NCBI GenBank assembly: GCA_036522815.1
Contig: DATDFC010000140.1
Coordinates: 4,243 to 68,242, forward strand
DNA from: Gemmatimonadales bacterium
GTDB taxonomy: Bacteria > Gemmatimonadota > Gemmatimonadetes > Gemmatimonadales > GWC2-71-9
Reading direction: 5' to 3'
DNA length: 64,000 bases
Shown here: in pieces, positions 4,096 to 32,570 of the stretch
Layout: each line of letters starts with the position of its first letter
Position numbering within the stretch: the first letter of the stretch is position 1
Position numbers and translations under genes: made by a program
The notes under the pieces: generated by a model
Databases searched by the model: none
Told to the model about the DNA's origin: nothing
Seen by the model: only the letters and a program-made list of their open reading frames with translations

Positions 4096-4713
4096 ATGTC
4101 TTTTTGGGAAGGATGTGGAACAATGCTTAGACTCAATATCGCGCCGTCGGCCGGAAGGTGGCGCCCGTCAACAACCGTGGGACGGACACTCACGGCGATA
4201 GTGGGGCTGGTTACCCTTTCGCTCGCCGTTCCCGTGAGTGCTCAGCAGCAGGGGGTGGTGGATCCAACCTGGCTGCGTTTCGATACAGCCGCCAAAACGG
4301 TCCGCTTCCAGTTGATCGCTGGGCTCACCGGGCTGAACGGCGCCCTGAACTTCAACGGGTTCCGTGACGGGGCGCTCACGCTCGAAGTACCGGTAGGGTG
4401 GAAGACGGAGATCGACTTCCGCAACCACGACGGGATGTTGCCCCATAGCGCCGAGGTCATCGCTCCGCGCACGCCGCTGCCGACGCAGTCCGTCGATCCC
4501 GCCATTCCGCGGGCCTTCACGTTGAAGCTCGGGGAAGGGCTTCCTTCGGAGGCGAAGGACATCCTGGCCTTCACCGCGCAGCCTGCAGGGGAGTACTTGA
4601 TCTTCTGCGGCGTGCCCGGACACGGCGCCTCGGGGATGTGGATCCGGCTCCGAGTCAGCGCGACGGCCCAGACGCCGTCGTTGCTGCTCACGCCAGCGGT
4701 GGGCTCGAGCTGA
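4096..4713 (+). CDS. Sulfocyanin-like cupredoxin
   Basis: Signal/anchor, then LNFNGFRDGALTLEVPVGW and the copper site FCGVPGHGASGMW (C-x2-GH-x4-M). The start could instead be the ATG at 4123. Confidence 0.7.
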   Translation: MSFWEGCGTMLRLNIAPSAGRWRPSTTVGRTLTAIVGLVTLSLAVPVSAQQQGVVDPTWLRFDTAAKTVRFQLIAGLTGLNGALNFNGFRDGALTLEVPVGWKTEIDFRNHDGMLPHSAEVIAPRTPLPTQSVDPAIPRAFTLKLGEGLPSEAKDILAFTAQPAGEYLIFCGVPGHGASGMWIRLRVSATAQTPSLLLTPAVGSS

Positions 4714-14419: not shown

Positions 14420-14498
14420 CGTTACGCGAATAGTCACGGGCGGCGTGGCGGAGCGCCAATAGCCCGTTCGTACCATAGGCGCCAACGCCAGTCACCGG
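14420..14498 (-). repeat. Conserved ~80-nt intergenic element, copy B
   Basis: Minus-sense core ATGGTACGAACGGGCTATTGGC, in the 90-nt gap between tkt and glgA. The 5' GTGA of the element contains the tkt stop codon. Confidence 0.8.
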
Positions 14499-20469: not shown

Positions 20470-20550
20470 CGTTGACAGGGCGAACACTCGCGAGCTGCGC
20501 GGCGCGGGCCAATAGCGCGTTCGTACCATCCACGTCAACAGCGATCACGA
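20470..20550 (-). repeat. Conserved ~80-nt intergenic element, copy C
   Basis: Minus-sense ...GTGATCGCTGTTGACGTGGATGGTACGAACGCGCTATTGGCCCGCG...TTCGCCCTGTCAACG, upstream of the dsbA-like/HAD/tal/pgi/tkt gene string. Confidence 0.85.
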
Positions 20551-25652: not shown

Positions 25653-26210
25653 ATGGCGGCGACCGTGGATTCCGAGGTCGTTGTACTGACTGTGGGCCAT
25701 TCGACACGGCCACTGGTCGAGTTCATTGCGTTGTTAAAGGCCCACTCGGTGGCTCGGCTCATTGACGTGCGCACCGTGCCACGCTCTCGGCACAACCCGC
25801 AGTTCAACCGCGATACTCTGGCGGCCGCGCTCGCGGCCACTGGCATCGGCTATGAACACGTTGCCGGCCTGGGAGGATTCCGGCGCACACACCCGGGGTC
25901 CACGAATACGGGATGGCGCAACGTGTCCTTCCGCGGTTACGCCGACTACATGCAAACCGCTGAATTCGCGGAGCGCCTCGCAGACCTCATCGCCGAGGCC
26001 AGACGCGAGCGCCTCGTGCTGATGTGCGCCGAGGCCGTACCGTGGCGCTGCCATCGCTCACTGATCGCCGACGCGTTGCTGGTGCACGGTTTGCGCGTCG
26101 AGGAAATCGTCAGCGGGACGCGTCGCCAGGTACACGCGCTGACCCCCTTCGCCAAGGTCAGCGACCTGCTAATCACGTATCCGCCGGAAGCGTCGCCGTC
26201 TCGAGCGTGA
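25653..26210 (+). CDS. DUF488 family protein (long form)
   Basis: VLTVGHSTRPLVEFIALLKAHSVARLIDVRTVPRSRHNPQFN and LMCAEAVPWRCHRSLIAD. Confidence 0.75.
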   Translation: MAATVDSEVVVLTVGHSTRPLVEFIALLKAHSVARLIDVRTVPRSRHNPQFNRDTLAAALAATGIGYEHVAGLGGFRRTHPGSTNTGWRNVSFRGYADYMQTAEFAERLADLIAEARRERLVLMCAEAVPWRCHRSLIADALLVHGLRVEEIVSGTRRQVHALTPFAKVSDLLITYPPEASPSRA

Positions 26211-26290
26211 TGGATGTTGACGTTGATGGTACGAACGAGCCATTGGCCCGCGTCGCGCACAGCGCCACCATTCGCCTAATCAAGTGACAC
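26206..26290 (+). repeat. Conserved ~80-nt intergenic element, copy D
   Basis: Plus-sense CGTGATGGATGTTGACGTTGATGGTACGAACGAGCCATTGGCCCGCGTCGCGCA...ATTCGCC. Its 5' GTGA contains the stop of the DUF488 gene. It lies ~80 nt upstream of the PQQ dehydrogenase start. Confidence 0.8.
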
Positions 26291-26367
26291 GCCAGAACTG
26301 TCGCCAGTAAAAGGCCGCGACCGGAAGCGTGCGAGAGAATAACACTCGACCTTTAACGGAGGTGGGT

Positions 26368-28071
26368 ATGACGCATTGGACTCGATGGTCCGCGATTGCG
26401 GTGGTCGCGTCGCTGATCGCGGTACCGCTGTGTGCGCAGTCGCACACCGCCGTGACAAATGACATGCTGCTCAACGCCGCGAGGAGCAGCGACTGGCTGA
26501 TGTATGGCGGCAACTACTGGAACAACCGGTTCTCTCCATTAAAGCAGATCAACACGACCAACGTGAAGCGCCTTGTTCCGCGGGCGATCTACACCCATGG
26601 TTCGAGCACTCTCGGCAGTTTTGAGACCACGCCAGTTGTCGTCAACGGCATCATGTACATCACGTCGCCCGTGAAGCCCAACAACATCGTGCGGGCGTTC
26701 GATCTGCGGTCGCAGAAGATGCTGTGGGAACACGTGCACAAGACCGGGCCGGTCAGCACCGCATGCTGCGGCTACAACAACCGCGGCGTGGCGGTAGCGA
26801 ACGGCATGGTCTACGTCGCGACGTTGGACGGCCAAATGATCGCGCTCGATCAACAGACCGGTGAGGAGAAGTGGGCAGTGCAGGTCGGTGACCCCGCGGC
26901 TGGTTACACCTTCACTATGGCGCCGCTCGCGATTGGCGACAAAGTCATCGCCGGGACGTCTGGGGGAGAGTACGGAATTCGTGGCTGGGTGAAGGCCTTC
27001 AACGGCGCGACGGGCGCGCTCGCGTGGACGTGGTATTCAATCCCCGCGCCGGAGGATGGCGGCTGGTGGGGCACGTGGGCTAAGACCACGCCGGAGGGCA
27101 ACGACCTCCATCGGGACATCGCGAAGGAGAAAACCGACTCGGCCAAGTACGCTGACGCCTGGCAGAATGGCGGCGGCGGGGTGTGGATGACGCCGGCCTA
27201 TGACGACGCCACGAAGACGCTATACGTCGCGGTCGGCAACCCATCGCCCGACCTAGACGGCTCGGTCCGCCCGGGTGACAACCGCTGGACCGATGGCATC
27301 GTCGCCATCGACGTGAACACCGGCAAGTTCAAGTGGGGCTATCAGACCGTGCCGCACGACGTGTGGGACTTGGACGCGGTGAGCCCCCCCGTGATCGTCA
27401 TGGTCGACGGCAAGAAAGCCGTGGTCCACGCCGGCAAGACGGGCTGGGTCTACGTCCTCGACGCGGCGACCGGGAAGCTGATCAGGAAGTCGGACGCGTT
27501 CGTCCCGCAGCAGAACATGTTCGCGCTCCCGACTCCCGAGGGGACGTTCATGCTTCCGGGCGCTAACGGTGGCTCGGAGTGGTCCCCAATCGCCGTGAAC
27601 CCGGGCCTCGCCTACGCGTACACGGTCGGCCTGCATCAGCCGATGCACTACAAGACCCACTATGCGCCGTGGGAGAAGGGTCGGGTGTGGCTGGGATCCG
27701 CCTTCTTGCGAATCCCGGACGACAAGGGCGACTTCTCTGGCGAATACGGTAACGTCAACGCGATTGACCTGAAGACCGGGAAGATCGCCTGGTCGGTGAA
27801 GACCGAGCAGCCAATGATGGGCGGCGCGACTGCCACGGCAGGTGGGCTGGTGTTCACCGGCGAGGGCAACGGCTGGTTCAAGGCCTACGACGCCAAGACC
27901 GGCGCGGTCCTGTGGAAGTTCAACTGTGGCGCGGGCGCGAACGCCGCACCCTCTGTGTTCGAGGTTGACGGCGAGCAGTTCATCGCCGTGGCCGCGGGCG
28001 GGAACTTCCAGCTGAGCTTCCCACTGGGCAACACGGTCTTCGTCTTCGGGCTGCCGAAGACGGGGAGGTAA
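26368..28071 (+). CDS. PQQ-dependent alcohol/methanol-family dehydrogenase (type I quinoprotein, no haem domain)
   Basis: Signal peptide; WLMYGGNYWNNRFSPL; the vicinal disulfide ACCGYNNRG; repeated W-motif blades; WDLDAV around the catalytic Asp. GGAGGTG lies before the ATG at 26368. Confidence 0.85.
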   Translation: MTHWTRWSAIAVVASLIAVPLCAQSHTAVTNDMLLNAARSSDWLMYGGNYWNNRFSPLKQINTTNVKRLVPRAIYTHGSSTLGSFETTPVVVNGIMYITSPVKPNNIVRAFDLRSQKMLWEHVHKTGPVSTACCGYNNRGVAVANGMVYVATLDGQMIALDQQTGEEKWAVQVGDPAAGYTFTMAPLAIGDKVIAGTSGGEYGIRGWVKAFNGATGALAWTWYSIPAPEDGGWWGTWAKTTPEGNDLHRDIAKEKTDSAKYADAWQNGGGGVWMTPAYDDATKTLYVAVGNPSPDLDGSVRPGDNRWTDGIVAIDVNTGKFKWGYQTVPHDVWDLDAVSPPVIVMVDGKKAVVHAGKTGWVYVLDAATGKLIRKSDAFVPQQNMFALPTPEGTFMLPGANGGSEWSPIAVNPGLAYAYTVGLHQPMHYKTHYAPWEKGRVWLGSAFLRIPDDKGDFSGEYGNVNAIDLKTGKIAWSVKTEQPMMGGATATAGGLVFTGEGNGWFKAYDAKTGAVLWKFNCGAGANAAPSVFEVDGEQFIAVAAGGNFQLSFPLGNTVFVFGLPKTGR

Positions 28072-28226
28072 CATTCACCCGTCCGGCCGCGCAGTCATGA
28101 TCTCTGAAGTTTTGTCACTGCGGTTGCGGCGGTGAAACCAGATGCGACCTTGCGTGCTCCCGCGCGAGGTCGCATAGGTTCCTTTGCGCGACAGGAGTCT
28201 ATACCCGCACCTGAAGGAACGCCGTC

Positions 28227-28775
28227 ATGAACGCTTGGCTCGTATTCGCCGCGTTCGCTGTCGTCGCTGGCAGTTGGACGGTCGCCTGGATCTGGATCGT
28301 CACTCATGCCCGTTCGGCTGCGCCCACCAAGGCCGGGGAAGAGTTCGACCTTGCAGGCGCGCGGCGGATCTTGCTCCCGCTGCTCTGCACCGTCGCCATC
28401 GTGCTGTTTGTGACCTCGCTCCCCCGACTTCCCTACGTGCACGCTCGCGTGCGCCGGCTCGGCGCACCGGTGGCGCACGTCGCGGTCACGGGCCTCCAGT
28501 GGACATGGCAGCTCGACCGCGACACGCTCCCCGCCGGCGTTCCCGTCGAGTTCGCCGTGACGTCGCGCGATGTGAACCACGGGTTCGCGATCTACGACTC
28601 CGTGGGGCGGCTGCTCACCCAGGTGCAGGCGATGCCGAACTATACCAACCGACTCGTCTACACGTTTCCCGCGCCGGGGAGCTACGTGATCCGCTGCCTC
28701 GAGTACTGCGGGATCGCGCACCACGTGATGCAGACGACGCTCGTGGTCACGGGCGCCGCGGGAGCCCACCCATGA
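28227..28775 (+). CDS. Haem-copper oxidase subunit II (CuA cupredoxin domain, no cytochrome c domain)
   Basis: One N-terminal TM helix, VNHGF, and CLEYCGIAHHVM (CuA ligands C-x3-C-x3-H-x2-M). Confidence 0.8.
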   Translation: MNAWLVFAAFAVVAGSWTVAWIWIVTHARSAAPTKAGEEFDLAGARRILLPLLCTVAIVLFVTSLPRLPYVHARVRRLGAPVAHVAVTGLQWTWQLDRDTLPAGVPVEFAVTSRDVNHGFAIYDSVGRLLTQVQAMPNYTNRLVYTFPAPGSYVIRCLEYCGIAHHVMQTTLVVTGAAGAHP

Positions 28776-30253
28776 GCGCCGCTCCCGTGGCGGAGGGCGT
28801 GCGCGACGGGCGAGTGCTCCGAGCCGCCCTCGCCTACCTTGTCACTGGCTTCGCGACGTTCCTGCTCATGGGCCTACTCGGGCTCCACATGCGGCTCGAT
28901 CAGGGCGGCCTCATGACGGTGTCGCCAACCTGGTTCTACCGAATCATGACGCTGCACGGGAGTGGCATGGTGGCGGGCACGATGCTCGCCACCATGGGCG
29001 GGCTTGCTGCCGCCGTAGAGCGGACCGTGCGCCTCAGCGCTCGAGCGCTGTGGACCGCGTTCCTCGTCTACATGCTCGGCATGGGATTCATTGTCTTGGC
29101 TACGACCCTGGGCGGGTTCGCCGCGGGGTGGACGGTATTGTATCCCCTGCCCGCGCTCGGGCGCGTATGGACGCTCTGGGCGGCAGTCGCGGCCTTCGTG
29201 GGCTACCTCTTTGTCACCCTCGGATTCACCCTCTACTGTTTCCACATCGCCTGGCGGATCGCGGCAGAGCGACACGGCCTCGGTAACGCCTTGGGGTGGT
29301 CGCTCTGGCGGAAGACGGAGCCGAACGATCCCCGCCGGCCCGGCTCCGCCGTCGAGATCATTGCCGCGGTGGTGACGCTCCAAGGTGTCTTCACGGGCCT
29401 CGTCGGCGCGGCGTACGTCGTGCCGGTACTCCTGAAGGATGCGGGACTCGTCGCCGCGCTCGACCCCTTGCTCGAGAAGAACCTCGCCTACTTGTTCGGC
29501 CACCAGCTCGCGAATCTGAACATCTACTTCGCTGCCGCTTTCGTGTACGCGCTCGTGGCGGAGCACACCGGTCGCCGGTGGCCAGCCAGCCGCCACGTGG
29601 CCGTCGCATGGAACCTCGTGCTGCTGCTCGTGCTGCTCCCCTGGCCGCACCATCTCTACCAGGACTTCGCACAACCGACGTTCATGCCCATTGCCGCCGA
29701 AGCCATATCGTTCCTCGTCGGGATCCCCTCCTTCCTCGTTACGATCTTCGGCGCTCTTGGGCGGATCAACCGATCCGGCATGCAGTGGTCGGTTCCGATG
29801 ATCCTCGTGGCGCTGGGACTATGGGGGTGGGTGACGGGAGGGCTCGGCGCCGTTCTGGACTCTGTGATCCAGGTAAACCAGGTCACGCACAACACGCTGT
29901 GGGTGCCGGCGCACTTCCACACGTACTACCTGCTCGGCGCTGCGGCCTTCACGTGGGCGTACCTGTACGACTTGGTGACTCGGCTTGCCGGCGTGCCGGA
30001 GGGTCGCGCGAGTCGGGTGGCAGCGTGGCTCTACGGCGTGGGTGGGGCTGGGTTCGTCCTGATGTTCTTCCTCTCTGGAGCGGCTGGCGTTCCCCGCCGC
30101 TATGCGGCCCACCTCCCCCAGTGGCAGCCGTTCGCGCGGATGGCGGTGCCCTTTGTCGTGCTGCTCGCTCTCGCCCTGGTGTGGCTCGCCGTGGACGTCG
30201 TCACGCGTCTGCGCCCGGCGTGGGTGCGCGCGGGCGCTGGTACACGGAACTAG
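28772..30253 (+). CDS. Haem-copper oxidase superfamily subunit I, atypical (no Tyr at the cross-link position)
   Basis: Twelve-TM-like hydrophobic profile. TLHG (haem His), FGHQLAN (CuB His, but N where A/B-family oxidases have the cross-linked Y), PWPHHLY (CuB His pair) and VPAHFHTYY (haem His pair). The ATG overlaps the subunit II stop (ATGA). Confidence 0.85.
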   Translation: MSAAPVAEGVRDGRVLRAALAYLVTGFATFLLMGLLGLHMRLDQGGLMTVSPTWFYRIMTLHGSGMVAGTMLATMGGLAAAVERTVRLSARALWTAFLVYMLGMGFIVLATTLGGFAAGWTVLYPLPALGRVWTLWAAVAAFVGYLFVTLGFTLYCFHIAWRIAAERHGLGNALGWSLWRKTEPNDPRRPGSAVEIIAAVVTLQGVFTGLVGAAYVVPVLLKDAGLVAALDPLLEKNLAYLFGHQLANLNIYFAAAFVYALVAEHTGRRWPASRHVAVAWNLVLLLVLLPWPHHLYQDFAQPTFMPIAAEAISFLVGIPSFLVTIFGALGRINRSGMQWSVPMILVALGLWGWVTGGLGAVLDSVIQVNQVTHNTLWVPAHFHTYYLLGAAAFTWAYLYDLVTRLAGVPEGRASRVAAWLYGVGGAGFVLMFFLSGAAGVPRRYAAHLPQWQPFARMAVPFVVLLALALVWLAVDVVTRLRPAWVRAGAGTRN

Positions 30254-30263
30254 CGGAAGTCCC

Positions 30264-30947
30264 GTGGGCGCTCGCATCGCGGCCATCCCTGACGCGCAAG
30301 TCTCTCCACTGGCCCGTGGGACGCTGGTGGGCGGCATCGCGGTCCTGGCGATCGCGATCTCGCCTCCGTTCGACCGGATCGCCGACCGATTCCTCACTGC
30401 CCACATGGCCCAGCATCTCCTGCTGACTCTTGTCGCAGCGCCGCTGCTTGTGGCAGGGGTCGGTGCGTGGCAGCCGCTCTGGGTCACGCTCGAGAAGCTG
30501 GTTTTGGGGCGCGGAGGCGCAGCCCTCGGGCGTGTCCTCACGCACCCACTTGTCGCTTGGGTGATTTCGGCCGTCGTGCTCTGGGCCTGGCACGCCCCGC
30601 AGGCCTACGACGCGGCGCTCGCCGACGACCGCGTGCACGCCGCCGAGCACCTTTCGTTCGTAGTCGCTTACGTGCTTTACTGGTGGCCACTCCTCGGGAC
30701 CGGCGTGGCCGAGCGGTCGAACGCATTTCGGGCCTTCTACCTCCTTGCAGGAACCGCGACGGGCGGATTGCTCGGCGCGTTGCTCACCTTCGCGCCGGGC
30801 GCGTGGTACGCTCATTACAACGCCATACCCAGCCCAACAGGCCTGTCGCCCCTCGCCGACCAGCATCTCGCGGGAGCGGTCATGTGGCTCATCGGTGCGG
30901 TACCGTTCGCGCTGATTGGGGTGGCCGTGCTGCGGGACGAGGGCTAG
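30264..30947 (+). CDS. ctaG: Cytochrome c oxidase assembly factor CtaG (Caa3_CtaG family) membrane protein
   Basis: FLTAHMAQHLLLTLVAAPLL, VLWAWHAPQAYDAAL and ADQHLAGAVMW motifs. The GTG start at 30264 is inferred. Confidence 0.65.
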   Translation: MGARIAAIPDAQVSPLARGTLVGGIAVLAIAISPPFDRIADRFLTAHMAQHLLLTLVAAPLLVAGVGAWQPLWVTLEKLVLGRGGAALGRVLTHPLVAWVISAVVLWAWHAPQAYDAALADDRVHAAEHLSFVVAYVLYWWPLLGTGVAERSNAFRAFYLLAGTATGGLLGALLTFAPGAWYAHYNAIPSPTGLSPLADQHLAGAVMWLIGAVPFALIGVAVLRDEG

Positions 30948-31957
30948 TGGCGAGGCGGCGGGTTTTCTCCGGTATCCAGCCGACAGGGAAGCTCCATCTG
31001 GGCAACTACATCGGCGCGATCAGCCTCTGGGTCGCGGCGCAAGCGGAGCACGAGGCGATCTTTTGCATCGCTGACCTCCACGCTTTGACGATTCCCGAGG
31101 CCGCGCGGGCTGCTCACCTCCGGGCCAAGGTGCGCGAGACGGCGGCCGTTCTCGTCGCCTGCGGGATCGATCCGGCTCGCGCGATTCTTTTCGTGCAGTC
31201 GCATGTCCCTGCGCACACACAACTGGCATGGCTCCTCAGCTGCGTGACGCCCGTCGGCTGGCTCGAGCGCATGATTCAGTTCAAGACTCGGTCCGCCGCG
31301 CTCGAGAGCGTGGGCACAGGACTACTCGCGTACCCGGTGCTGCAGGCGGCGGACATCCTGCTCTATCGGGCCGATCTCGTCCCGGTCGGTGAGGATCAGC
31401 AGCAACACATCGAGTTCACCCGCGACGTCGCAAGGCGATTCCACGCGCTGTTCGGACAGGTGTTCACGCTCCCGGAATCGATGCTCCAGCCGAGCGGCGC
31501 GCGGATAATGGGTTTGGACGACCCCAGCACGAAGATGAGCAAGAGCCGGGGCGAGACCCGGCCGTATCACGCCATCGGCTTGGTCGATCCCCCCGATGCG
31601 ATCCGTGACGTCGTCATGCACGCGGTCACCGACTCCGGGCGAGAGGTGCAGCCAGAGCGTGCGTCCCCGGGCGTAACCAATCTCCTGAGGATCTACGAGC
31701 TGCTGTCGGGCCGCCGCAGCGACGCCGTACAGGCGGAGTTCATGGGAAAGGGTTACGCAGTCTTGAAGCGTGCGGTTGCGGACTTGGTCGTCACGACGCT
31801 CGAGCCCATCCGGCGGCGGTATCTAGATATTGCAGCCGAACCGGGGCGGCTCGATGCGGTACTTGATGAGGGTGCCGAGCGCGCCCGCCCACTCGCTGAC
31901 GCGACGCTCGATCGGGTCAATCAGCTAATGGGCTTGGAAGAGGGAACCCAGGATTGA
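30947..31957 (+). CDS. trpS: Tryptophan--tRNA ligase
   Basis: RVFSGIQPTGKLHLGNYIGA (HIGH-type motif) and KMSKS. The GTG start overlaps the ctaG stop by 1 nt. Confidence 0.9.
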   Translation: MARRRVFSGIQPTGKLHLGNYIGAISLWVAAQAEHEAIFCIADLHALTIPEAARAAHLRAKVRETAAVLVACGIDPARAILFVQSHVPAHTQLAWLLSCVTPVGWLERMIQFKTRSAALESVGTGLLAYPVLQAADILLYRADLVPVGEDQQQHIEFTRDVARRFHALFGQVFTLPESMLQPSGARIMGLDDPSTKMSKSRGETRPYHAIGLVDPPDAIRDVVMHAVTDSGREVQPERASPGVTNLLRIYELLSGRRSDAVQAEFMGKGYAVLKRAVADLVVTTLEPIRRRYLDIAAEPGRLDAVLDEGAERARPLADATLDRVNQLMGLEEGTQD

Positions 31958-32205
31958 GTAAATCGGTTGGCCTCACTCTGACCCGTAAGAGCGTAGGAGG
32001 GCGGCTTACTTCTCCGCCACGAGCGGCCCGACGTTCACCGTCATTCGCGGCGACATCGAGCCACGCAGGAACGTCAGGTGGACGACTTGATCTGAGGGGG
32101 TTGTTCGACGGTTTGGTGGAAGATGTACCCAAGGAGGGCTCCGGCGCCGCTGCTCACTATCGTCAACAGGGCGGGAACCACCACCGGAGGTGCCAGGGCG
32201 ATCGG

Positions 32206-32478
32206 GCGACCAAACGCGCCGGGCTCGCGGGCATGTTGGTGCATGACCTCCGGCGCACGGCCGTGCGAGATTTTCGACGCGCCGGCGTGTCGGAGGGTGA
32301 GATCATGAAGCTCTGCGGGTGGCGGACGCGCTCGATGTTCGATCGCTACAACATCATCGACGAGGCGGACCTCGCCGCAGCCGTGGCGAGGCGGTTTGGC
32401 AACGGCAAAAAAACCGCAGACATAAAGCCTTCCGCGCTCGCCCCGGATTCTGTAACTTCCAGCCGCAGCGATTCTTAG
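32206..32478 (+). pseudogene. C-terminal fragment of a tyrosine recombinase (phage-type integrase)
   Basis: LVHDLRRTAVRDFRRAGVSEGEIMKLCGWRTRSMFDRYNI carries the box II His/Arg and the catalytic Tyr. Sequence upstream of ~32206 is not integrase-like, so the N-terminal two-thirds are missing. Confidence 0.7.
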
Positions 32479-32514
32479 GTCCGTAGCTCAATTGGTAGAG
32501 CACCGGTCTCCAAA
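32361..32514 (+). repeat. Right copy of direct repeat (integrase 3' tail + tRNA-Trp 5' half)
   Basis: Partner of 423-549; see that feature. Confidence 0.9.
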
Positions 32515-32549
32515 ACCGGGGGTTGCAGGTTCGATTCCTGCCGGGCCTG
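32477..32549 (+). tRNA. trnW: tRNA-Trp (anticodon CCA)
   Basis: Hand-folded cloverleaf. The acceptor stem AGGTCCG/CGGGCCT has one G-T pair. The D-arm is GCTC-AATTGGTA-GAGC and the anticodon arm is CCGGT-CTCCAAA-ACCGG. The T-arm is GCAGG-TTCGATT-CCTGC and the discriminator is G. CCA is not encoded. Confidence 0.9.
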
Positions 32550-32570
32550 TATAAACCACAACGACTTACA

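Follow-up and report, generated by a model that had tools for sequence, protein, structure and literature searches.

An sNOR-Type Haem-Copper Oxidase Operon With a CtaG-Type Assembly Gene in a Gemmatimonadales Bacterium

Introduction

Among the haem-copper oxidases (HCOs), the residue at the cross-link position of subunit I differs between families. It is Tyr in the O2 reductases, Asn in sNOR and in CuANOR/bNOR, Gln in eNOR, Asp in gNOR and Glu in cNOR and qNOR (PMC8756737, Table A4, after Hemp and Gennis, 2008). The sNOR family has been known since 2007–2008 and was surveyed in 2024 (344 GTDB genomes). According to this survey, it is related to the B family, carries CuA and shares its active site with bNOR, a biochemically shown nitric oxide (NO) reductase (Murali et al., 2024; PMC11214002). 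'Silicibacter' is among the sNOR hosts listed (PMC8756737), and the gene order norSY-senC-orf1 was described for ammonia oxidisers (bioRxiv 10.1101/765727). This order describes proteobacterial clusters and is no catalytic definition. Here, a four-gene operon of a Gemmatimonadales bacterium (assembly GCA_036522815.1) was analyzed, which lies on contig DATDFC010000140.1 in a stretch of 64,000 nucleotides (positions 4,243 to 68,242 of the forward strand; in the following called the window). As read from the open reading frames (ORFs), it encodes subunit II and subunit I of an HCO, a membrane protein of the Caa3_CtaG type and a tryptophanyl-tRNA synthetase (TrpRS), all in one direction. The oxidase has Asn at the cross-link position, and sequence comparison assigns the operon, with good support, to the already described sNOR family.

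Results

Family Placement

Of 8000 candidates scored in a protein-database search, 473 were relatives with an expect value (E) of at most 1e-3. Apart from clusters that are near-identical to the window protein, the best relatives among these candidates are just 58% identical. Their hosts are Gemmatimonadaceae, Chloroflexi, Thermomicrobium and Nitrolancea, and the names which some of them carry are 'cytochrome c oxidase subunit 1' or 'cbb3-type ... subunit I'. Furthermore, 583 relatives were confirmed in a genome scan using one genome per species, and the best 80 loci were analyzed. The motif G-H-x3-N is present in all of them (80/80).

Within these 80 loci, the gene order changes with the distance from the window protein. 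At 45–60% identity, every locus shows the order coxII-coxI-CtaG and SenC was never found; the hosts are Gemmatimonadota, Chloroflexota, Thermomicrobia and one metagenome-assembled genome each of the Eremiobacterota and the Bacillota. At 32–42% identity, most loci have coxII-coxI-SCO1/SenC and then a gene for a membrane protein of about 200 amino acids without a Pfam match; the hosts of this tier are Proteobacteria, Bacteroidota, Acidobacteriota, Actinomycetota and others. In more than 30 relatives, SCO1/SenC and orf1 follow the oxidase genes, as in the published order norSY-senC-orf1.

Two cultured relatives were identified in a plasmid collection. The first one, encoded on a megaplasmid of Ruegeria (formerly Silicibacter) pomeroyi DSS-3, is 38.7% identical, contains the sequence FFGHVFIN and served as the named sNOR reference. 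Its cluster comprises, in this order, an Rrf2 regulator, subunit II, subunit I, an SCO protein, a hypothetical protein, a formate/nitrite transporter and a cytochrome c. The second one, from a megaplasmid of Thermomicrobium roseum DSM 5159, is 51% identical and contains LFGHTLVN; here, subunit II and subunit I are followed by a formate/nitrite transporter and a 'cytochrome c oxidase assembly protein'. Additionally, a Thiobacillus homologue was used as query for the NorY of Nitrosomonas. Its 120 best matches, at 72% identity or more, all belong to other Betaproteobacteria, with no ammonia oxidiser among them.

A tree of 89 sequences was calculated with the quick search of IQ-TREE (LG+G4), with long branches being flagged. 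The references were five B-family sequences (the ba3-type oxidase of the host and four from plasmids), one A-family and one C-family sequence. All Asn-type proteins (82/82) form one clade with a support of 100 in the Shimodaira-Hasegawa-like approximate likelihood ratio test (SH-aLRT), which is separated from the B family by a long branch, and the A- and C-family sequences lie outside. The clade consists of four groups: a proteobacterial one including the R. pomeroyi sNOR (26 sequences), one of Actinomycetota and Vulcanimicrobiota (8), one of Bacteroidota, Acidobacteriota and Kryptonia (19) and a CtaG-linked one (29; support 100), which contains the window protein and the T. roseum enzyme.

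The original prediction, made from the DNA letters alone, had offered two alternatives for this oxidase and had named phylogenetic placement as a way to check them. The first alternative, a NOR-type, B-related HCO without the helix-VI tyrosine, is supported by N248, by the G-H-x3-N motif and by the common clade with sNOR, whereas the second one, a novel HCO family, is not supported, since the protein clusters with named sNOR loci. The placement holds for the grouping with the R. pomeroyi sNOR and the norSY-senC-orf1 loci and for the separation from the B, A and C families.

In RefSeq, both T. roseum (NC_011961.1, 440479-444273) and R. pomeroyi (NC_006569.1, 194918-199426) have the catalytic sNOR subunit under the misleading name 'cbb3-type cytochrome c oxidase subunit I', and the name given to the CuA subunit of R. 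pomeroyi, 'cytochrome C oxidase subunit I', is misleading too. Next to the sNOR cluster of R. pomeroyi, there is a true cbb3 operon (ccoNOQP). A further member of the CtaG-linked group, with the longest branch in it, is located on the 5.8-kb contig JAAYND010000273.1. This contig was assigned to the bin of a Methanomicrobiales archaeon, perhaps through a binning error or because of a transfer.

Ligands and Active Site of Subunit I

Subunit I contains the motifs TLHG (H62), FGHQLAN (H244, N248), PWPHHLY (H293, H294) and VPAHFHTYY (H381, H383). H62 and H383 were assigned to the low-spin haem, H381 to the high-spin haem and H244, H293 and H294 to the metal of the B site. These six histidines are invariant across the 80 relatives and align in phmmer with H72, H233, H282, H283, H384 and H386 of Thermus thermophilus ba3. 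In the same alignment, H244 is located opposite H233, and N248 opposite the cross-linked Y237. Because N248 is unchanged, together with the six histidines, in an alignment of 14 homologues and the Asn is also invariant in the 80 homologues, it is no sequencing oddity.

The cofactor motif of the B-family O2 reductases, G-H-P-x-V-Y, was not found in subunit I, which has G-H-Q-L-A-N instead. Likewise, it shows none of the hallmarks of eNOR (Gln), of gNOR (Asp for a CuB histidine and loss of CuA) or of nNOR, cNOR and qNOR (Glu ligand): the active-site residue is Asn, all three B-site histidines are kept and CuA is intact. A tyrosine supplied by another helix was considered and rejected, as no conserved candidate is seen in the alignment at a plausible position. 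The original prediction would have been contradicted by a protein within an O2-reducing family with such a tyrosine; the clade found here is separate from the O2 reductases in the tree.

The nearest solved relative in a phmmer search of the PDB is T. thermophilus ba3 (E 1e-12 to 1e-14), with weaker matches to the A family and no cNOR, qNOR or cbb3 chain below E 1e-3. An AlphaFold model of subunit I, based on the 14-sequence alignment, has 12 helices, a predicted local distance difference test score (pLDDT) of 82.6 and a predicted template modelling score (pTM) of 0.87. In Foldseek, it matches HCO subunit I chains with a TM score of about 0.8. The highest sequence identity is to ba3; the TM score, about 0.8 for both the A and the B family, does not separate them.

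Subunit II and Selection on the Oxidase Genes

In subunit II, a cupredoxin domain follows two membrane helices at the N-terminus. Its CuA ligands H118, C157, E159, C161, H165 and M168 were found unchanged in all 79 homologues compared, and a search of the protein for CxxCH motifs found none, which leaves it without a cytochrome c domain. On these points the original prediction proved to be accurate: it had named the six canonical histidines, the loss of the cross-linked tyrosine from subunit I, and an intact CuA site without a cytochrome c domain in subunit II. Its motif GHQLAN was also read in the DNA, at 29498-29515, so that the coordinates given for it (29499-29516) have to be shifted by one base to the left. 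An Asn at this position, which it had named for one of the proposed NO reductase families, is listed for sNOR and for CuANOR/bNOR (PMC8756737, Table A4).

In another metagenome, a relative was found that agrees with the window at 95% identity over 4.2 kb; this stretch begins at the end of the gene for a pyrroloquinoline quinone (PQQ)-dependent dehydrogenase upstream of the operon and reaches to the TrpRS stop codon. Compared with this relative, subunit I has a ratio of nonsynonymous to synonymous substitution rates (dN/dS) of 0.16 and subunit II one of 0.22, with all key residues unchanged. The oxidase genes are under purifying selection and hence functional by the usual test.

Distinctive Residues and the CtaG-Type Protein

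The residues kept in all four groups of the Asn clade include K236, Y252, Y259, R268, D298, T324, D363, N369 and Y385. Y259 aligns with Y248 of ba3. The K-channel residues Y244, S261, S309 and T312 of ba3 are not kept: A255, A272 and V323 are found in place of Y244, S261 and T312, and position 320, the equivalent of S309, is variable in all subclades. T324 stands opposite T315 of ba3 only across a gap of two residues. For sNOR, the accessible part of PMC11214002 describes an S309 equivalent without conservation and, at another place in the K-channel region, a Glu that is conserved but left unnamed; in subunit I, position 260 is the sole candidate for it. This position is occupied by Glu in 23 of the 25 sequences from Proteobacteria and by Ala or Gly in the window subclade, the window protein itself having Ala. 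Position 195, in turn, is Glu or Asp in 25 of the 28 sequences of the window subclade and hydrophobic in the other groups. According to the helix boundaries of the model, E195 is located at the cytoplasmic start of helix V and could be a proton entry point.

The CtaG-type protein of the window matches the proteobacterial orf1 product in BLASTP at E 6e-5. In a profile comparison (hhalign) of 28 CtaG with 34 orf1 sequences, a probability of 96.7% and an E of 3.8e-10 were obtained over 173 columns, whereas the control with reversed CtaG reached 0.8%, that with subunit I 21% and that with subunit II 0.8%. When orf1 was scanned directly against Pfam, no match was obtained, and the relationship to CtaG is visible by profile-profile comparison only. 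Thus, the orf1 product of the norSY-senC-orf1 clusters appears, from these alignments, to be a divergent CtaG-type assembly factor and a remote homologue of the window protein. Since CtaG and orf1 are related in this way, the two cluster types have three homologous components, and SenC is the difference between them: SCO1/SenC was found neither in the cluster nor anywhere in the host genome. The homology of CtaG and orf1 and the difference at E195 and E260 are modest additions to the sNOR literature that was compared.

Gene Layout and Junctions

The features of the locus are listed in Table 1. The ORFs and the matches to PF00115 and PF00116 bear out the two-subunit HCO of the original prediction, and the match to PF09678 the Caa3_CtaG-type factor that it had placed downstream. 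For subunit I, the ATG at 28772, which overlaps the stop codon of subunit II as ATGA, is the preferred start. For the CtaG-type gene it is the GTG at 30264, with GGAAG six bases upstream as read in the DNA. The TrpRS gene starts with a GTG that shares one base with the stop codon of CtaG (TAGTG), which couples the two genes in translation and makes their co-transcription probable.

Table 1. Coordinates of the oxidase operon and adjacent features in the window
Feature	Position	Strand	Remarks
PQQ-dependent dehydrogenase (methanol/ethanol family), neighbour	26329..28071	+	TIGR03075, 446 bits
Terminator-like hairpin between PQQ dehydrogenase gene and subunit II	28142..28175	+	15 pairs, 9 of them G-C; T-rich tail after it
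Subunit II (norS/coxB-like)	28227..28775	+	182 aa; PF00116 and TIGR02866; ribosome-binding site GAAGGAA ahead of ATG
Subunit I (norY/coxA-like)	28772..30253	+	493 aa; 12 predicted membrane helices; PF00115 at E 2e-47
Codons of the GHQLAN motif	29498..29515	+	GGC CAC CAG CTC GCG AAT = G243 H244 Q245 L246 A247 N248; frame of ATG 28772
Caa3_CtaG-type membrane assembly factor	30264..30947	+	227 aa; PF09678 at E 6e-44; apparent counterpart of orf1
Tryptophanyl-tRNA synthetase (TrpRS)	30947..31957	+	PF00579; GTG start

Host Genome and Nitrogen Context

The host assembly has a size of 4.0 Mb and is 96.75% complete. It encodes three oxidases with the tyrosine: two belong to the A family (GHPEVY), and the third is of the ba3 type (GHPLVY) and shares 49% identity with a Haloarcula protein annotated as b(o/a)3 subunit 1. 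As no further PF00115 match was found in the host genome and the existing ones are exhausted by these enzymes, NorB is undetected in the host. A NirK homologue with the copper-ligand motifs was identified (E 3e-60 to Geobacillus NirK). Neither a cd1 nitrite reductase nor a formate/nitrite transporter was found in the host genome, and for NosZ only CuA-domain matches (TIGR04246) were obtained. By analogy, this set of NirK and sNOR, with no cNOR or qNOR detected, resembles that of Nitrococcus mobilis, which has NirK and sNOR as its only NO reductase and makes N2O (PMC5665590). This is the sole physiological, though indirect, evidence found for NO reduction by an sNOR.

The neighbourhood of the relatives also contains genes related to nitrite or NO. 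A formate/nitrite transporter gene is part of the T. roseum cluster, which belongs to the subclade of the window protein, and of 11 proteobacterial loci. Rrf2 (NsrR-like) regulators are encoded beside 10 proteobacterial loci. Among the 151 sampled genomes of the phylum, an Asn-type HCO is encoded in 13, four of these, including the host, being of the CtaG type; two congeners in the sample have no Asn-type HCO.

Two further observations concern the host. The NirK-like gene (1345-2352 of the retrieved stretch) is located on another contig than the Asn-type enzyme, about 8 kb upstream of the ba3-type operon of the host. Due to this position, the nitrite reductase is a neighbour of the true B-family O2 reductase, and the Asn-type enzyme is encoded elsewhere. 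Moreover, no SCO1/SenC was found in the host beside its four CuA-containing oxidase operons. Two CtaG genes were found, one by an A-family oxidase and one at the locus described here. Either CuA is assembled by another route, or the 3% that the assembly lacks contain a SCO1/SenC gene; it must be one or the other.

Discussion

Proposed Function

An sNOR-type NO reductase is the best reading of the operon and one which we hold with moderate confidence. NO is proposed as the substrate because the active site is identical to that of bNOR, because relatives have nitrite- or NO-related neighbours and because of the gene set of the host. Since its active-site residues are the same as in bNOR, the enzyme probably works like an NO reductase. 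Electrons would enter CuA of subunit II from a periplasmic donor, a cytochrome c or a cupredoxin that is not encoded nearby, and would pass via the low-spin haem (H62/H383) to a binuclear centre, in which the high-spin haem (H381) would be paired with a metal on H244, H293 and H294. In this centre, Asn248 would take the place of the redox-active His-Tyr cofactor, the source of the fourth electron in O2 reduction, and due to this replacement the site would be suited to the reaction 2 NO + 2 H+ + 2 e- -> N2O + H2O. The enzyme would clear the NO produced by a NirK-type nitrite reductase, with N2O as the end product. Y252, Y259, S313 and T324 (helices VI and VIII) together with the subclade-specific E195 could form a proton path from the cytoplasm, by which the reaction would become electrogenic. 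The CtaG-like protein would act as a dedicated assembly (metal-insertion) factor.

Several points weigh against an NO reductase. The NO-reductase role of sNOR is described in PMC11214002 as a proposal. In Nitrosomonas europaea, the sNOR transcripts rose 2.7- to 10.8-fold when O2 was limiting, and a role as high-affinity oxidase was suggested by the authors (bioRxiv 10.1101/765727). The tree, having no references of bNOR, eNOR, gNOR or nNOR, separates the Asn clade from the B, A and C families only. In addition, the window protein itself lies on a long branch and deviates from the consensus of its subclade at the conserved sites Q245, A263, A272 and W291. Beside the window locus, neither a nitrite transporter nor an NsrR-like regulator nor a nir gene is present. 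Finally, NirK is not enriched in the phylum sample: of the 12 other carriers of an Asn-type HCO, 5 have NirK-like genes, compared with 48 of 138 non-carriers, and the co-occurrence with NirK was dropped as functional evidence.

The main rival is a specialized high-affinity O2 reductase, i.e., a B-type enzyme without the His-Tyr cofactor and perhaps of low turnover under low-oxygen, NO-rich conditions. The induction in N. europaea and the lacking NirK enrichment speak for it, as do the descent from ba3-type oxidases, which are also the closest in structure, the retained CuA and B-site histidines and the cytochrome-oxidase assembly factor alongside. However, all characterized O2-reducing HCOs need the cross-linked tyrosine, according to PMC11214002, and no substitute is apparent in subunit I: Y252 is located two helix turns below H244 in the alignment, Y296 is not conserved in the proteobacterial sNOR, and there is no match to the helix-VII tyrosine position of the C family. 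Furthermore, the host already has three oxidases with the tyrosine, one of them of the ba3 type. We therefore regard an O2 reductase as unlikely, although it deserves to be taken seriously. The caution of the original prediction, which had left the decision between O2 and NO reduction open, matches the literature, in which an O2 role is argued for N. europaea (bioRxiv 10.1101/765727) and NO reduction for Nitrococcus (PMC5665590).

Another chemistry of a haem and a non-haem metal, such as the reduction of peroxide or N2O or the dismutation of NO, or a role mainly as NO sink or sensor and not in respiration, seems improbable. It is true that NO dismutation as well as N2O reduction have been suggested as activities of HCO offshoots whose active sites are altered (PMC11214002), and the window subclade has putative proton-path residues of its own, with E195 present and E260 absent. 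However, positive evidence for such a chemistry is missing. The active-site residues equal those of bNOR, a demonstrated NO reductase, and the families put forward as NO dismutases and N2O reductases have their relatives in qNOR and cNOR and not in the B family (PMC11214002).

For the sNOR-type NO reductase, some consequences would follow. Enzymes of this type may contribute a part of the environmental N2O, and annotation pipelines miss them; the window protein and its relatives are given the label 'cbb3-type cytochrome c oxidase subunit I'. The locus adds a member from the Gemmatimonadota, and the host, with its NirK-like gene, no other recognizable NO reductase and no NosZ found, is predicted to be an N2O-emitting partial denitrifier. 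The subclade has a cultured representative in T. roseum, where the question of NO versus O2 could be tested biochemically.

A more far-reaching and rather speculative proposal, to which we assign a low probability, is that the CtaG-linked subclade is a functionally distinct sister of the classical sNOR. It would have a proton route of its own, with E195 replacing the Glu of helix VI, and a dedicated metal-insertion factor of the CtaG type, and it might represent an electrogenic, oxygen-tolerant NO reductase of aerobic soil bacteria. If this were true, the homology of orf1 and CtaG would mark the fourth gene of all sNOR clusters, which has long had no assigned role, as the assembly factor for the Asn-type binuclear centre.

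Neighbouring Genes

The PQQ dehydrogenase gene ends 155 bp upstream of subunit II on the same strand, and it was asked whether the oxidase is the dedicated terminal oxidase of this PQQ-dependent (lanthanide-type) dehydrogenase, both forming one alcohol-oxidising respiratory module. The proximity favours such a module, as does the presence of a PQQ dehydrogenase near the cluster in about 5 of the 29 related loci, all of Gemmatimonadales, and in the 95%-identical relative. However, in 24 of the 29 subclade loci it is not adjacent, and two congeners keep the dehydrogenase (77–79% nucleotide identity) followed by unrelated DNA without the oxidase operon. Between the two genes lies a strong terminator-like hairpin (Table 1), which suggests that the oxidase operon is a transcription unit separate from the PQQ dehydrogenase gene, and no cytochrome c gene connects both. 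Because of the hairpin, the rare adjacency and the congeners, an oxidase coupled to the PQQ dehydrogenase was rejected as very improbable, and the dehydrogenase is treated as a neighbour and not as a partner.

The dehydrogenase itself has a vicinal Cys-Cys and a W-D-L-D motif, a kind associated with the lanthanide-dependent enzymes XoxF, ExaF and PedH, and there is no cytochrome c gene nearby. An 81-nucleotide element (20470-20550) has partial copies at 1600-1641, 14455-14476 and, on the minus strand, 26206-26259. The latter copy is inverted and located just upstream of the PQQ dehydrogenase gene; none was seen ahead of subunit II.

TrpRS II of Deinococcus is linked with nitric oxide synthase (NOS). 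The TrpRS gene of the operon is one of two in the host genome, the second copy being encoded on another contig with 47% identity. The order coxII-coxI-ctaG-trpS was also found in the 95%-identical relative; in the other related loci, TrpRS is not at this place. The window TrpRS matches the canonical bacterial TrpRS at E 1e-94 and TrpRS II at E 6e-37, and a search for a NOS gene found none. An auxiliary TrpRS tied to NO biology was thus rejected, the enzyme being of the canonical type and a NOS gene not being found.

The synteny with the 95%-identical relative stops right after the TrpRS stop codon, at an integrase remnant. A direct repeat (423-549 and 32361-32514, about 95% identical over 94 nucleotides) consists of the 5′ half of a tRNA-Trp and a 3′ remnant of an integrase gene. 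Its copies bracket about 32 kb including the operon; the tRNA-Trp is located at 32476-32550 and the ORF of the integrase tail at 31954-32478. The bracketed interval is not simply foreign as a whole, because the PQQ dehydrogenase gene inside it is conserved in congeners.

Comparison With Known Systems

Among the systems compared, the sNOR described for ammonia oxidisers, Nitrococcus and R. pomeroyi with the order norS-norY-senC-orf1 (Stein, 2007; Hemp and Gennis, 2008; PMC11214002) shares with the window operon the two subunits, a CuA subunit II without a haem c domain, the six histidines and the Asn. Common to both are also the invariant residues K236, Y252, Y259, R268, D298, T324, D363 and N369, the tree clade including R. 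pomeroyi and a downstream membrane protein homologous to orf1. However, subunit I is only 32–42% identical, and the gene order differs, as the window cluster has no SenC and carries CtaG at the position of orf1. The latter has no Pfam family, whereas the window protein is recognizable as Caa3_CtaG. Finally, Glu260 of 23 of the 25 proteobacterial sequences is Ala in the window protein, and E195 is conserved only in the window subclade.

The B-family ba3 oxidases, i.e., that of T. thermophilus (PDB 1EHK) and that of the host itself, have the same fold, six histidines and a CuA subunit II; the solved ba3 structures, the closest by sequence, are 21–22% identical. They contain G-H-P-(I/L)-V-Y with the cross-linked tyrosine, whereas the window protein has G-H-Q-L-A-N, and a long, fully supported branch lies between them.

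The bNOR (qCuANOR) of Bacillus azotoformans, which was compared by its description only, has the same active-site residues, namely three histidines and Asn, and a CuA subunit (PMC8756737, Table A4; PMC11214002). PMC11214002 describes it as restricted to the Bacillales, as not closely related to sNOR and as having a K channel closely like that of ba3. Such a B-family-like K channel was not found in the window protein, in which only the equivalent of Y248 (Y259) is clearly kept.

The closest cultured relative found is the cluster TRD_RS11245-11260 of T. roseum DSM 5159, which belongs to the same subclade (51% identity) and has the layout coxII-coxI-...-CtaG. There, a formate/nitrite transporter gene is inserted between subunit I and CtaG, which was found neither at the window locus nor in the host genome, and the window operon, unlike that of T. 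roseum, runs on into the TrpRS gene.

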